This document shows, piece after piece, positions 25,765-54,361 of a DNA stretch of 64,000 bases. The stretch is taken from assembly GCA_963833225.1 (NCBI GenBank), contig CAWHXD010000008.1:608001-672000 (forward strand), written 5' to 3'. The stretch comes from an uncultured Chloroflexia bacterium (GTDB lineage: Bacteria; Chloroflexota; Limnocylindria; Limnocylindrales; CSP1-4). A program made the position numbers and the translations under genes. Within the stretch, counting starts at the first letter, position 1. The number at the start of each line of letters is the position of its first letter. The notes under the pieces are model-generated. The model was not told the DNA's origin. It searched no databases and saw nothing but the letters and a program-made list of their open reading frames with translations.

Positions 25765-27735
25765 CTAGGGCACGGTCACCGTGGTGGCGGCAAGTGGACC
25801 ACGATCGTCACCGATGCCGTCGATGACGATGCTGTAGGTCAGGCCGGACGCGAGGCAGCCCACGGCCACGGTCCCGGAGCCCGCAGGCCCGGTCGCCTCC
25901 AGCACGCCGTCGAGGGTCAGCCCGCCATCGGGCGTCACGCCGGATTCGGTCGGGAACGCGCGCACGGCCACGCTCTCCTCACCGATGCCAACGAGCTCAT
26001 AGGTCACGTTCGCGCTGGTGCAGGCGCTGGACGCGGGCGCAAGCGCCACCTGGTCGAGGCAGAACCCGGTGCCGCCAAACGTCGCCGATTCGTCGCAGGA
26101 CGCGCCCGCGAGCTGATCGAGCCTGACCATCGGCCGCAGGAAGGCGTCGGCGGCAACGTGGGAGTAGGGCGAGAGACCCGTGCCGGCCTCGAACAATGGC
26201 GAGGCGACCGCGGCGAGCGACACGTCGAACGTCTTGACGCCACTGCCGGTGGTGAACGAGCCGATCCCGCTCGACCCGGCGAAGACCCCGCTCCCGGCCA
26301 CGGCCTGGAAGTCGTAGGTCGTCGCGGCCTGGACATCGAGCTCGGCGAGCACCATCGGGGTTCCGAACAGGGTGACGCCGGTGATCGAAGTGGCGGTGTG
26401 CACGTTGGCGGGGCTCTCGCCGTGGACCCAGAACTTGACGTCGGACGTGGTTGGTGGGTCGACGGTGAACCCGACGATCGCCTTGTTGGCACGGTCGGAG
26501 TCGACGAACAGGACGTTGACGGTTGGCCCCAGCTTGAGCTGCAGCAGGGGTGGATCCCCGGACACGAAGATGGCCTCGAGGCCCGTCGGGCAGCCGGACA
26601 GGCTCGGGCTCACGATGCAGATGTCGAACACCGGGCTGACCAGGATGCTGTCCCTCAGCCCGCCCGCCACGGGGGGCGCCGCCGGGCTGGCAACCTCGAG
26701 GCCGATGTCGCCGGGCTCCACCGGCAGGAACCCTGACGGCACGGGTACCGGCGTGGCACCGGGGTCCACCGAGGGCGGGGCGCTGGCGGAGGGATTCGGG
26801 GAGGAGCCGGGGCCGTGCGGGCCGGAGCTGTCGGCAGGAATGGGCACGACATCCGGACCCACCACGTCGGGGGCCACGCCGCCGGGCGGGAAGGCCCACA
26901 TCGCCGGGATCCGGCCGCCGCCGAACGCCGTCCCGAACGCATCCACGACCGAGGCCGGCCACCAGTCGCCCTTGTAGCCCGAGTGCGGCCGACCCAGCGG
27001 ATCGATCACGTAGTAGGCCTCGGGGATGCCGCGCTTGGCGTTGCCCGGGTAGTAGCCGTCGAGGTAGATCGCGTGGCCGCCGGTGAAGTCCTTCTGGAGA
27101 CGGAGGCCCGCGGGGATCTCGCCGTAGATGCCCTGGATCACGGCGCCGTAGCCGTGGGCGAGCAGGTCCTTGAGCTGCTGCGGGCGCAGGAGGCCGGTGG
27201 GCGCCGACACGCCGTATCCGCGCCACAGGGCCGCCTTCAGGTCGTTGAGGCCCGTGCCGCCGTCCTGGTCGTCCTGGAGCGTCCGGAGCACCGACCCGTT
27301 GGTGACGATGCCGAAGGCGAGCCGGGCGAGCATCGAGCCCGAGGCGAGGGTGCAGTTGGCGCCCTGGAACGGCCCGCCGTCGAACTGGGTGATGGGGTCG
27401 ATCCGCGGGAAGCCGGTGGGATCCTTGAACACCGCCGGCTCCACGCCCTGGCCGGGGTCGCCCGCACCCAGGATCGCCGCCGCCGCCGCGCTCAGGTCCC
27501 CGGGATCGAGCGAGGCCAGCGCGACCGGGTCGCTGGCGGGTTCGGCATCAAAGGCCGCGATGGCTGGGGCGTCGCCTGCGATGGGGGTGTCGGCACCGCC
27601 CAGGAGGTACTCGGGTGCCGTGCCGGCGGTCGAGTGGGGCGACCGATCCTGCATGGCGCCGACGACGACGCTCGCAACGACGAAGCCGAGGACGGCGCTG
27701 ACGACGAACGCCAGGAGTCGGAGGATCCAGCTCAT
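25765..27735 (-). CDS. Membrane-anchored papain-like (C39-like) cysteine peptidase-domain protein with C-terminal beta-rich domains
   Basis: N-terminal TM; TQFDG...NCTLAS...GGHAIY...VIDP gives a Q/C/H/D pattern; Pro-rich linker. Confidence 0.65.
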   Translation of the reverse strand: MSWILRLLAFVVSAVLGFVVASVVVGAMQDRSPHSTAGTAPEYLLGGADTPIAGDAPAIAAFDAEPASDPVALASLDPGDLSAAAAAILGAGDPGQGVEPAVFKDPTGFPRIDPITQFDGGPFQGANCTLASGSMLARLAFGIVTNGSVLRTLQDDQDGGTGLNDLKAALWRGYGVSAPTGLLRPQQLKDLLAHGYGAVIQGIYGEIPAGLRLQKDFTGGHAIYLDGYYPGNAKRGIPEAYYVIDPLGRPHSGYKGDWWPASVVDAFGTAFGGGRIPAMWAFPPGGVAPDVVGPDVVPIPADSSGPHGPGSSPNPSASAPPSVDPGATPVPVPSGFLPVEPGDIGLEVASPAAPPVAGGLRDSILVSPVFDICIVSPSLSGCPTGLEAIFVSGDPPLLQLKLGPTVNVLFVDSDRANKAIVGFTVDPPTTSDVKFWVHGESPANVHTATSITGVTLFGTPMVLAELDVQAATTYDFQAVAGSGVFAGSSGIGSFTTGSGVKTFDVSLAAVASPLFEAGTGLSPYSHVAADAFLRPMVRLDQLAGASCDESATFGGTGFCLDQVALAPASSACTSANVTYELVGIGEESVAVRAFPTESGVTPDGGLTLDGVLEATGPAGSGTVAVGCLASGLTYSIVIDGIGDDRGPLAATTVTVP

Positions 27736-27736
27736 C

Positions 27737-51353: not shown

Positions 51354-54300
51354 GAGATCGCGCCCGCCCCGTCCACGGCCACGCCCAGCGCCTCGAGCAC
51401 GAGGGCGTACTCGCGCCGGTCGCGGGTTGCGGCACCCGCATCGCCGCCCCGTTCCCGCGCGGCGATGAGCATCCGCCACAGGGCGTCCTGGTAGCGGTCG
51501 AGCTCGAGCCCGAACCGGCAGGTCCGGACGACGGCGGCGAGGTCGCCGGCGAGCAGCGACGCCTCCGCGAGCCGCTCCGCGGCCTCGATGGCCCGGGCTG
51601 CGGCACTGGTCGCGCCGCTCGGTGACCCAGCCGGCAGGCCCTTCCTCCGGCAGGAGGTCGCCCGTATAGAGGTCGACAGCGCTGGCGAATGCCGCGGCCG
51701 ACAGGTCGCCCTGGTCGCTGGTCGCTCGCCCGGCAGCGATCGCCAGGTCGAATCGTCCCAGGTCGACGTCCTCGGCAGCGACCGCAAGCCGGTAGGCATC
51801 GCCGTCGCGGCCGATGAGCCGGCTGCCGATCGGTCCAGCCTCCTCGTCGAGCAGGCGTCGCAGCGCCGACAGCGCCACGTGGAGACTCCGAGCGCCGGCC
51901 GTCGCGTCCGACTCGGGCCACAGCGCCTCCTGGATCACCTCGCGGTGAACGGGTGCCCCGGCGTGGAGGGCGAGCAGCCGGAGCAGCGACCGGGCCCTCG
52001 GCTTGACCCCGTCGAGCGAGACCCGTCGTCCATCGGCCTCGAGCGCGAACCCGCCCAGCGTCCGGACCTGGACGCTGGTCGCCTGCTCGTCGGCCGCCGG
52101 GTCCACGGGCTCAGCGGCTCCCACGCCGGACGATGCTGGCGCGACGGTGCGGCCGACCGCCCAGGGCGGCAGCACCAGCCCCGTCTCATCGCCGTCGCGG
52201 TCGCCAGCCGGAGGTGGTCATCGGCATGCGCGGGATCCACCTCCGCGAGGGCCGCGTGGGCCATCATCCGTGCGGCCGGCGTGCCCGAGGCTCGCGCCAG
52301 GGCCTCTGCGGCCACGGCGTGCTCGCCGGCATCGGGCAGGCCCGCATGCGCCGCCGCAAGGGCACCAACCGACCGGGCCCAGGCCTCGAGCACGCCGGTC
52401 CCGAGGTGCCGGAACGCATCGGCCGCGGTCTCCGCCGAGGTCACGGTGGCGTCGATGGGTCCGTCCCCGCACCAGGCGGCCGCAAGCTGCAGCAGCGCGG
52501 CGCCCCACGGCTCCTCCTCCGCGAGGGCCGAATCGCGGTCGAAGCCCGAGGCGGGTTCCGGCCGGCGCGCCGCCGACGTCACGGCGTCGCCGCCTGCGCG
52601 GCTTGCCATGCGCCCGGCGAGGACACGCCCTAGCCGCGCGAGCCAGGCGATGCCTGCCCGCTCAGCGTCCTCCACGGCCCGGTCGAAGGTCCGCGCGTCG
52701 CACGGCTCGCCCCCGAGCACCGCGGCGACGGTGGCGCCCAGCCGGGCAGCGGCCGTCGCAACCGGACCTCCCTCGCCCGAGTCCGCCGCATCGGTCAGCA
52801 TCCGGTGCGCAACCGTCACCTCGCCGGATGCCAGCGCGAGCAGGCCACGCGCGACCGGCGCCAGGCGATCGGCCCGGTGCGCCAGGTCGCGGACGGCGGT
52901 TCCCGGGTCGCGGACCAGGCCCGTCCGCAGGATGCCGGCGGCGTCCGGCTGGGGAATCGTGAGCGGGTCCAGCCAGGCGGCCAGCGCCAGGCGCTCGGCA
53001 CGAGGCACCTCCGCGGCGCGGACCGGCCCAAGGCCCGCCTCGGCGTGGGCGTAGGCCGCGAGGGCGGCCGCCCAGCGCCCGTCGTTGCGCGCCCGACGCG
53101 CCGCGGCGAGGGCAACCCACGGGTCGTGGCGCTCGATAGCCGGCGGCAGCTCCTCGATCCAGCGTCCTTCGCTGCCCGCGGCCAGCCGCTCCCCTTCCCC
53201 GCCCAGCAGCCGGCGGACCGCGTCCCAGTCCGCCGCGCGCGAGTACGCGCGCAGCGCCTCGGCAAACGCTCCCTCCGCCTCGAGCAGCCGGCCGGCCCGA
53301 TCGTGGCGGTCGCGGGCCGCCGCCTCGCCGATCTCCTCTACCAGCATCCGGTCCAGGTGCTGGCGCAGGATCTCGTGATAGCGGTAGGCGTCCGTCCCGT
53401 CCTCGATCGGGACCGTGAACACGCCGCGCCGCGCCAGCTCGTCGAGAAGCGCGTTGCTCCCGGTCGCGCCGCGGATCTCGTCGCACAGGTGGCCCGACAG
53501 GCGCCCCAGGACGCAGGTGTCGAGGAGGAAGGTCTGGAGCTCCGCCGGGAGCCCGCCCATCACGTTCTGGGCGAGATACTCCCGCAGCAGCCGGCCCGAC
53601 GATCCCGGGCCGCCGAGGACGCGGCGACGCTCCTCGGGCGAGCGTCCCCGCGTCGCGAGATGGAACAGCTGGAGGCCCGCGGCCCAGCCCTCCGTGCGTC
53701 GGGCGAGCGCGGCGAGATCTGCCGGGGGCACCGGGTCGTGGTAGACCTCGCGGAACAGCTGTTCCACCTCCCAGGCGCGGAACCGGAGGTCGTCCGTGCC
53801 CACCTCGAGCAGGTCGTCCGCGACGCGGAGGCGAGACAGGTTGAGCACCGGGGCCACGCGGGTCGCCACCAGCAGGGTGAGCCACGCGGGCGCGTAGTCG
53901 ATGAGCCGTCCGAAGGCCGCCTCGGCCGGCGTGTCCTCCAGGTAGTAGAAGTCGTCGATCACGAGCAGGACCGGCGCCTCGGGCGACCCCGTGGCCTCGA
54001 GATCGCGCACCGCGTCCTCGACCGTCCGCCAGCCGCCGGCGAGCGATGGCAGGGCGGCCGACAGCGACGCCTCGAGGTGGCGGACGAAGGACAGCTCGTC
54101 GGCGTCCCAGGTTTCCGCGCGGTACCAGGCGACGGGCCGGCCGGCGATGGCGGCGAAGCGGGCGAGGAGCGTGGTCTTGCCCGAGCCCGCGGGAGCGATG
54201 ACGAGCGTCAGGCGCTTGTGGATCGCCTCGGCGAGACGCGCCTCGAGGCGCTCGCGGGGCAGCGCGGCAAGCACGGGAACCCGGATCTTCGCCGGCACCA

Positions 54301-54361
54301 CCGGCAGCGTCCCCACGTCGGCCGAGCGGCCCGTCGTCGCGCCCTCCCGCGCGTCACGCAA
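51350..54361 (-). CDS. MalT-like ATPase regulator with C-terminal OmpR-HTH/BTAD (SARP); apparent frameshifts at ~52175 and ~51595
   Basis: [19 protein letters not shown] and [15 protein letters not shown]...[10 protein letters not shown]...[10 protein letters not shown] and [10 protein letters not shown]...W in following frames. Confidence 0.85.

Follow-up and report, generated by a model that had tools for sequence, protein, structure and literature searches.

The locus described here lies in a window of 64,000 nucleotides (the whole stretch of DNA analysed, positions 608,001 to 672,000 of contig CAWHXD010000008.1 from the uncultured Chloroflexia bacterium of assembly GCA_963833225.1) and encodes a contractile injection system (CIS). 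Its closest described counterparts are CIS-Sc of Streptomyces coelicolor, a system of subtype IId (PMC10066040, PMC10020575), and the systems of Roseiflexus and other Chloroflexota and Deinococcota, which belong to lineage IId as well and whose particles were seen unattached in the cytoplasm by cryo-electron tomography (PMC12998442). In S. coelicolor, the gene for Sco4242, or CisA, is located just after the baseplate wedge genes (PMC10020575, PMC12237407). The protein combines an unstructured N-terminus, a Cys-rich putative Zn-binding stretch in front of a transmembrane segment and a C-terminal domain of ~150 aa (PMC12237407, PMC10020575). It is required for firing, is predicted to contact the baseplate protein Cis11 and was reported not to belong to the particle (PMC12237407). 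In the work of Vladimirov et al., Sco4242 was detected in purified particles and taken for a fibre (PMC10020575). Sco4256-58 are proteins with a single transmembrane segment, a shared N-terminus and a variable C-terminus. They were described as toxic to E. coli and as necessary for the tube lumen to be filled (PMC10066040). Homologues of Sco4256 were noted in IId loci of Chloroflexi (PMC10020575), and the study on Roseiflexus reports that this genus has no close cisA homologue (PMC12998442).

In the window, a complete CIS core shares a chromosomal island with two regulators, a CisA-like adaptor and an operon of five genes, which are named A6, A5, A3, A2 and A1 here. This operon is inherited together with the CIS core. 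It appears rather probable that the island as a whole, with its IId-like Streptomyces-type CIS, its CisA-like adaptor and its envelope operon, acts on the envelope of the cell which produces it. The core, the host phylum and two of the six membrane proteins (one CisA-like, one Sco4256-like) belong to known kinds. What is new is, first, the conserved envelope operon, hardly ever detected outside genomes that have the machine, and, second, the combination of a Zn-ribbon anchor with different outer domains (discoidin, PD40).

Core, adaptor and effector compared with Streptomyces

Genes were called by codon bias and then checked against Pfam and NCBIfam. Between 34.7 and 49.1 kb of the window, every component of the core (sheath, tube, tube initiator, spike, gp25, baseplate J, gpI, cap and AAA+ ATPase) scored above its Pfam cut-off, and each CIS gene class that the original prediction had named from the letters alone was found in its place. 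The gene order is collinear with locus C9 of Streptomyces echinatus (G006), the shared set comprising LuxR, cap, ATPase, an A6-like gene, DUF4157, sheath, tube, a small protein, tube 2, LysM tube, spike, gp25, baseplate J, gpI and a Zn-ribbon/discoidin gene. Identity to this locus amounts to 58% for the sheath and 54-55% for baseplate J (54% by tblastn). S. echinatus possesses two CIS loci, of which C9 (L033/L034; baseplate J 55%) is closer to the window than C6 (L010/L035; 43%). This near gene-for-gene match is in agreement with the actinobacterial, Streptomyces-like gene set that had been proposed. The locus can be classed as a lineage-IId-like, Streptomyces-type CIS, with the label IId being taken from the papers and carried over by collinearity with and identity to S. 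echinatus as proxies.

Like CIS-Sc (PMC10066040, PMC10020575), the locus has the core set in the same order, a LuxR gene nearby, a single-transmembrane effector-like gene and a bitopic protein after the baseplate genes, and no fibre gene. It differs from CIS-Sc by belonging to another phylum, by containing one A6 copy with another outer domain instead of three effectors and by a MalT-like STAND regulator within the island. The four further genes A5, A3, A2 and A1 had no match in the fetched stretches of the two S. echinatus loci. With the Roseiflexus clade (PMC12998442), the system shares Chloroflexota hosts, the lineage label IId and synteny with Streptomyces. In contrast to that description, the family studied here has a CisA-like gene accompanying the CIS in ten of ten related genomes checked, as well as the accessory operon.

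The CisA-like protein of the window (719 aa) is encoded directly after gpI, in the position of a tail fibre, and no fibre family matched it. It is bitopic with a single transmembrane segment (residues 526-556). A Zn ribbon at the N-terminus (residues 1-30) is followed by a spacer of ~400 aa consisting of (Glu-Pro)n and Pro-rich sequence, a second Zn ribbon with an LPWWKR motif (446-500), the transmembrane segment and an NADase-type discoidin domain of the glycan-binding type (~595-719). An alignment of the orthologues shows strong conservation of both ribbons, in the case of the second one including the juxtamembrane motif, while the spacer varies from ~200 to 600 residues and consists of (Glu-Pro)n here (window 49340-50000) and of AEAERQ repeats elsewhere (L021, L061, L063). 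In the ten related genomes, the orthologous gene lies after gpI in five, 11-15 kb from the sheath gene in four and on another contig in one. In G146, a genome of the same genus, and only there, an IS3-family-like transposase (family read from the sequence; L069:1546-2433) is located between gpI and the CisA-like gene; a tail-fibre reading for these additional 1.7 kb was dropped, as the stretch is the transposase.

The gene after gpI in S. echinatus encodes a protein of 516 aa. It starts with a Zn ribbon, to which a disordered arm, another Cys motif, an LPWWRR motif, a transmembrane segment and a weak NADase_transloc domain are added, and the position of the gene and this architecture point to a cisA orthologue. 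The 49194-51353 protein matches it in the C-terminal domain (E 2e-6, 27% identity) and A3 matches it as well (E 1e-10), with identities of 27-28% for both comparisons. Together with the largely disordered N-terminal cytoplasmic arm, the Cys-rich Zn-type motif before the transmembrane segment, the conserved C-terminal outer domain (~130-150 aa) and the position after the baseplate genes, this suggests a CisA-like protein, homology to SCO4242 itself, which is known here by description, being approached via the S. echinatus gene. The adaptor of the window differs from CisA by the additional, highly conserved N-terminal Zn ribbon, the very variable 200-600-aa repeat spacer, the NADase-type discoidin outer domain and the presence of a paralogue, A3 (BLASTP E 5e-9). 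For CisA, baseplate J (Cis11) is the predicted partner (PMC12237407). A complex prediction of residues 1-45 of the window protein with baseplate J and gpI reached an ipSAE of 0.42 in three of three runs (best of three controls 0.00; partner pLDDT at least 68), a value that the prediction tool rates as weak support. Among solved complexes 116 of 157 attain this mark, and among mismatches 2 of 215 do so, but a pass of 0.60 or less is wrong in the majority of cases if the guess was not already a likely one.

A3, the second CisA-like protein, is intact in the collinear relative L001 (84-86% nucleotide identity; L001:17241-18353, 370 aa), from which the true models of A6, A5 and A3 were taken, and is frameshifted in the window. 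In two genomes (G003 and G004), a protein in which a double Zn ribbon is fused to a PD40 propeller is encoded next to a second A6-like gene, the two forming a divergent pair between the STAND regulator and PPDK (L024:5850-7295(-) with L024:7439-8893(+); L023:4686-6128(+) with L023:3101-4615(-)). This fusion connects the anchor type of A3 with the ectodomain type of A5, and both with the effector family.

A6 resembles the effectors of CIS-Sc. It shares 40% identity over 210 aa (tblastn E 1.8e-41) with the S. echinatus gene between ATPase and DUF4157, the product of which carries a ChW C-terminal domain, and it shows the architecture of the Sco4256-4258 family, i.e., a shared N-terminal domain, a single transmembrane segment and a variable C-terminal domain in a IId-type locus. 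A6 is thus a putative Sco4256-58-like effector, the S. coelicolor proteins being known here by description. The gene is intact in L001 (L001:13830-15170, 446 aa), and the window copy contains two compensating frameshifts (~33457 and 32867). Homologue listings for A1 and A6 returned only close relatives, with a few titles reading 'Candidatus Limnocylindrales' or 'Chloroflexota' and one stray PulG label, and did not link A6 and SCO4256 by name. A distant A6-like paralogue is encoded elsewhere in the genome to which the window belongs (G000:C6:111082-112020; 30% identity, E 9e-27).

The envelope operon and its inheritance with the core

A6, A5, A3, A2 and A1 follow one another in the same direction on the minus strand, and the LuxR gene is transcribed away from them. 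Eight related genomes (G001-G005, G146, G011 and G071) show the arrangement LuxR-A6-A5-A3-A2-A1, in many cases with NDH-2 coming next, and the operon retains its order even where 7-50 kb of other DNA part it from the core. A giant gene stands between operon and core in G003-G005, and A1 is ~49 kb away from the ATPase gene in G002. The genome G128 is rearranged and contains two A6 copies, and in G047 A6 and A5 are found near the core with A1 and A2 being 86 kb from the sheath gene.

The original prediction had offered a way of being refuted, namely that the accessory genes do not co-occur with CIS in related genomes. They do co-occur. Among 150 other genomes of the family, 33 had a sheath match (limit 1e-100) and 117 had none. 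A1 (limit 1e-30) was found in 21 genomes, all of them with sheath, and in 0 of the 117 sheath-negative ones; likewise, all 19 genomes with A5 (limit 1e-40) had a sheath match, and again none of the 117 contained it. A6 (limit 1e-20) was detected in 34 genomes, namely 32 of the 33 sheath-positive and two of the 117 sheath-negative ones, the latter two being assemblies of 180 and 500 contigs from genera otherwise having CIS. In a class-wide sample of 106 genomes from four other families, A1 had no match.

The six membrane proteins that had been claimed, two with Zn ribbons and four more anchored or exported, were all found, with three of them (A6, A5 and A3) being frame-broken in the window. A5, which is intact in L001 (L001:15110-17233, 707 aa), and A2 are composed of domains that would lie outside the membrane (Table 1). 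The orthologues of A2 gave only weak Pfam matches (Big_7 in four of nine, Big_3_2 in three of nine and SH3_3 in two of nine).

For A1, predicted structure and conservation point to a membrane-anchored, outward-facing cysteine peptidase of the papain/C39 fold. Cys128, His221 and Asp245 are invariant in eight orthologues, and His and Asp are invariant in an alignment of 42 sequences as well. The domain model built from this alignment (pLDDT 91.7, pTM 0.88) was compared with known structures by VIA-align and, separately, by Foldseek, the best match of the latter having an E of 9.4e-6. By VIA-align, the closest structures were the pseudomurein endoisopeptidase PeiR (8z4h; Z 15.2, 155 residues, rmsd 3.5 Å), a C39-like peptidase of B. 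anthracis (3erv; Z 14.3, 158 residues, 4.0 Å), the peptidase domain of ComA (Z 14.0, 135 residues, 2.5 Å), PCAT1 (Z 13.7, 136 residues, 2.6 Å) and a papain-like CdiA toxin (Z 13.3, 129 residues, 2.5 Å). The PeiR, 3erv, ComA and PCAT1 domains, at Z 13.4-15.2 over 135-158 residues, place A1 in the papain-like fold and have the conserved Cys-His-Asp in common with it; the Cys stands at the N-terminus of a helix, and His and Asp are located on the strands after it. Unlike the C39 peptidases of ABC transporters, A1 is predicted to be anchored outside the membrane with two FN3-like domains and no transporter fusion; the FN3-like character of its C-terminal part (Z 9-10) comes from a whole-protein model of low confidence (mean pLDDT 47.9), usable for that part only. 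The gathering score of Pfam Peptidase_C39 or C39_2 was reached by none of the eight A1 orthologues (best E 0.1, in one of them), and because no C39 model reaches its threshold A1 is filed as a C39-like fold outside those Pfam families. Profile searches of the sequences in the Protein Data Bank with A1, its domain and A2 returned nothing meaningful. A library-wide search with the A1 domain retrieved 271 representatives at E<=0.001, and a sample of 20 distant homologues included fusions to LysM and Peptidase_M23, with a sub-threshold Peptidase_C39_2 match in three of the 20. The cell wall is a plausible substrate of A1.

Extent, regulators and host of the island

In G107, a genome of the same genus, the alignment to the window runs from 58416 to 54556 and continues after 146 bp with 25517 to 24205. 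Therefore, window 25518-54555 is a single insertion or deletion of 29.0 kb between the NDH-2 and PPDK genes and the natural unit which holds core, regulators and accessory operon. G107 has neither a sheath nor an A1 match. A larger stretch, window 21546-54583, is missing in G062. A mobile-element reading of the island was rejected, with no integrase or transposase match among the open reading frames scanned and no flanking repeat longer than 9 bases being seen, tRNAs having been outside the scan.

Table 1. Features of the island and its neighbours (window coordinates; aa, amino acids; TM, transmembrane segment)
Feature	Coordinates	Strand	Evidence or remark
NDH-2 gene, island neighbour	24198-25589		
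Whole island: CIS core, regulators, accessory envelope operon	25518..54555	.	G107 alignment
A1: N-terminal TM anchor, predicted papain/C39-fold cysteine peptidase domain (~100-295), two FN3/Ig-like domains	25765..27735	-	predicted structure, alignments
A2: Gly-rich N-terminal TM anchor, SH3b-like domain, Pro/Thr linker, Ig-like repeats	27737..29290	-	alignment of 9 orthologues
A3, second CisA-like protein: double Zn ribbon, TM, NADase-type discoidin domain	~29358-30474 (upper coordinate estimated)	-	Pfam DZR/Zn_Ribbon_1, NADase_transloc; NCBIfam NADase_discoid E 1e-26
A5: signal peptide, PD40 (TolB-like) beta-propeller, choice-of-anchor-D Ig-like domain, hydrophobic C-terminus	~30482-32611 (lower coordinate estimated)	-	Pfam PD40; NCBIfam choice_anch_D
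A6, putative effector: two cytoplasmic Ig-like domains, long TM segment, Pro/Thr linker, ~100-aa outer domain	32551..33885	-	L001 model; weak Cep192_D3 match
LuxR/GerE-type regulator	34021-34668	+	Pfam GerE E 5e-13; divergent from A6-A1 operon
DUF4157/eCIS_core protein, 215 aa, HExxH motif	34730-35377	-	Pfam eCIS_core E 7e-35
AAA+ ATPase with winged-helix domain (Cis15/Afp15-type)	35460-37721	-	Pfam WHD, AAA
Pvc16_N/DUF4255 cap protein	37718-38653 (start may be 38446)	-	Pfam E 1e-36
Contractile sheath	38635-40149	+	Pfam Phage_sheath_1, Phage_sheath_1C
Tube protein	40188-40622	+	Pfam Phage_T4_gp19
Conserved 144-aa protein	40630-41064	+	64-66% identical to Streptomyces counterparts
Pro/Ala-rich 672-aa protein, conserved C-terminal helix, tape-measure position	41216-43234	+	position kept in all relatives
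Baseplate block (next six rows)	43247-49117	+	Pfam
Tube 2 (gp19)	43247-43744	+	Pfam
CIS_tube+LysM tube initiator	43755-44498	+	Pfam
Phage_base_V, VgrG-like spike	44498-46183	+	Pfam
gp25	46210-46614	+	Pfam
Baseplate_J	46617-48563	+	Pfam
Tail_P2_I (gpI)	48563-49117	+	Pfam
CisA-like adaptor	49194..51353	+	Pfam, NCBIfam
STAND/MalT-like NTPase regulator	51935-54361	-	Pfam AAA_16/AAA_22; NCBIfam MalT N-terminal half E 3e-57
PPDK gene, other island neighbour	54564-57345	-	

The Pro/Ala-rich protein at 41216-43234 had no Pfam or NCBIfam match and would, judging from its position, be the tape measure. Both predicted regulators, the LuxR (GerE) protein and the MalT-like one, could be confirmed, and the BTAD domain that had been assigned along with the latter was not detected in the 51935-54361 protein. 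The MalT-like regulator is kept in five of five relatives. The LuxR gene adjoins A6 in nine related loci showing both genes (including L001, L047, L048, L049, L052, L053, L054 and L056) and is located apart from it in G002. Exact copies of the 11-mer ACGGGCAGCCC precede the A6 operon (33898-33908(-)) and the DUF4157 gene (35430-35440(+)), and a copy with one mismatch lies in the cap/sheath intergenic region (38501-38511(+)). A shared promoter motif is not claimed, as eight matches were counted window-wide with 4.4 expected, 7 of 100 shuffles reach eight and the motif is only loosely kept in relatives.

No PAAR protein (PF05488) was found anywhere in the genome, which is 86% complete, and capsid, fibre, holin and endolysin families had no match among the island open reading frames scanned (Pfam, NCBIfam). 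Of the absences listed in the original prediction, those of fibre, PAAR, holin, endolysin and capsid genes stand within this scope, and that of a toxin gene has to be softened in view of the effector-like A6 and the predicted peptidase A1. Families of the type VI secretion system (T6SS; TssJ/L/M, ClpV-type, TssA-type) were not among the Pfam and NCBIfam matches of the island proteins, no search having been aimed at them.

The nearest loci were found in metagenome-assembled genomes labelled 'uncultured Chloroflexia bacterium', with an ATPase best-segment identity of 96%, and of 69-79% for five others. Near-identical A1 and A6 proteins belong to 'Candidatus Limnocylindrales bacterium', and the NCBI taxonomy places Limnocylindrales within Chloroflexota, class Ca. 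Limnocylindria. This fits the predicted Chloroflexota-like, non-Streptomyces host, which probably is a member of Ca. Limnocylindria. The window has a G+C content of 72%. Among public sequencing runs, small shares of the stretch (at most 0.15 of it) were recovered from wetland, salt-marsh and soil metagenomes, from which no habitat claim is drawn. Among the papers of the searched library, none mentions both 'Limnocylindr' and 'contractile injection'. Outside the island, the window further encodes a bacterial TSP3-repeat protein (62284-63738(-)) and a VWA-domain protein (7849-9171(-)), for both of which no CIS link was seen.

Proposed mode of action and its alternatives

By analogy to Streptomyces and Roseiflexus, a tethered and intracellular mode of action can be inferred for this system. 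Particles would form unattached in the cytoplasm and would probably be loaded with the A6 effector, the DUF4157 protein perhaps being a second cargo. The CisA-like protein would capture the baseplate by its N-terminal Zn ribbon on the long acidic tether, with the discoidin domain holding wall glycan outside the membrane, and the particle would then fire at or through the membrane of its own producer. More speculatively, A3, A5, A2 and A1 could be the envelope-side partners, which bind the wall and cut it locally. Firing would end in envelope failure and regulated cell death, as has been reported for Streptomyces, and the LuxR and MalT-like proteins may set the timing. The original prediction had likewise suggested a trans-envelope apparatus rather than a lysis-released particle, and this part of it goes no further than an inference.

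Several observations weigh against this reading. A6, A5 and A3 are frame-broken in the window assembly. A1 is missing from 12 of the 33 sheath-positive genomes (E<=1e-30) and A5 from 14 (E<=1e-40), with three of three genomes of the genus g45 lacking both and four of four of the genus g55 lacking A1; therefore, the additional envelope proteins are not required for the machine. The genomes are kin, so that the co-occurrence counts overstate the support. The likeness to Streptomyces CisA is drawn through a single S. echinatus gene, the sequence of SCO4242 itself being outside the comparison. In the sister loci of G003, G004 and G005, annexin-repeat proteins (in order of size 2,088, 2,500 and more than 3,059 aa) are encoded between the DUF4157 gene and LuxR (L003:14223-21725, with a C-terminal AHH nuclease; L005:14558-20824; L007:12884-22063, with an N-terminal DUF4157 domain), and these giants look like polymorphic-toxin cargo aimed at other cells. 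Finally, a wall peptidase could equally serve release by lysis.

The last two points lead to the alternative that survives best, namely a conventional extracellular CIS, the particles of which are released by lysis and act on other cells, with A1 and its wall-binding partners being a release or target-wall module. Such a released antagonistic system is kept in view because of the predicted wall-type peptidase in the operon and the giant toxins with DUF4157, annexin or AHH-nuclease parts in sister loci, at the position matching that in the window. It would also agree with the similarity of A1 to the cell-wall endoisopeptidase PeiR as its best structural match, with the fusions of its distant homologues to LysM and M23 and with the fibre reading of Sco4242 in PMC10020575. 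However, the fibre, holin, endolysin and PAAR genes of such a system had no match within the scope given above, and the island of the window contains no giant toxin. The protein in the fibre position has a transmembrane segment, and its Streptomyces counterpart was reported not to belong to the particle (PMC12237407). Moreover, the related Chloroflexota, Deinococcota and Streptomyces systems studied so far are described as cytoplasmic and not released (PMC12998442, PMC10066040). A released system thus appears rather unlikely for the window.

Action on the producer's own envelope could go further than outlined above. The adaptor and the A6-A1 operon might form a dedicated docking and exit station, unrelated in sequence to the T6SS membrane complex, through which a machine of the extracellular CIS (eCIS) lineage fires outward from inside the cell. 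Zn-ribbon hooks on long acidic tethers would catch the baseplate, attachment of the site to the wall would be the task of the discoidin, SH3b and propeller domains, and A1 would open the wall. This extension is to be regarded as unlikely; if true, it would represent an independently evolved, anchored, T6SS-like mode in Chloroflexota.

A further possibility is that A5, A3, A2 and A1 are an ordinary envelope operon whose only tie to the CIS is the common island and which contributes nothing to the working of the machine. The CIS-positive genomes without A1 or A5 and the distance of 86 kb between the sheath gene and A1 and A2 in G047 would be in line with it, as would the frequent occurrence of PD40, SH3b, Ig and C39-like domains among envelope proteins. 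Yet A1 and A5 were found in none of the sheath-negative genomes of the family, the first gene of the operon is the effector-like A6 of the CIS and a later one a paralogue of the CisA-like adaptor gene, and the order of the operon is kept across insertions of 7-50 kb. In addition, the Zn-ribbon/PD40 fusion stands beside a second A6-like gene in two genomes. An unrelated operon is hence improbable, and involvement of these genes in a tethered CIS is preferred.

Consensus errors of the assembly most likely account for the frameshifts in A6, A5 and A3. At least eight frame changes are crowded within ~4.6 kb (29.3-33.9 kb), with the 16-kb core, A1 and A2 being intact in the window. However, L001 has A6, A5 and A3 intact and carries frameshifts in the ATPase gene and A1 instead, and third-position G+C is at least 0.9 in each shifted segment. 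The housekeeping gene PPDK is also split in the window, into two open reading frames of 623 and 292 aa at the start of PEP-utilizers_C, probably by a single-base assembly error, and lies within an open frame of 945 aa in G107. Eight of these places also show a difference of exactly one base between the window and short-read contigs of 90-99%-alike strains, which come from four runs belonging to four studies (33456, 32479, 32392, 32114, 31969, 30869, 30835 and 30549). As these four observations speak for assembly errors, it is very improbable that the frameshifts are real and that the operon is decaying here as a module out of use.

With action on the producer's own envelope as the preferred reading, the island bears on the way in which cytoplasmic CIS reach the membrane and bring about the death of the cell that makes them. 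To our knowledge, CisA is the only membrane partner of a cytoplasmic CIS known so far, and it is known from Streptomyces alone. The findings suggest that a CisA-like adaptor exists in another lineage, within the Chloroflexota, and that its Zn-ribbon anchor has been reused with different outer domains, discoidin in one case and PD40 in the other. Furthermore, a defined envelope set, including a predicted wall-type peptidase, travels with the machine, and its members are concrete candidates for the missing envelope-side partners.

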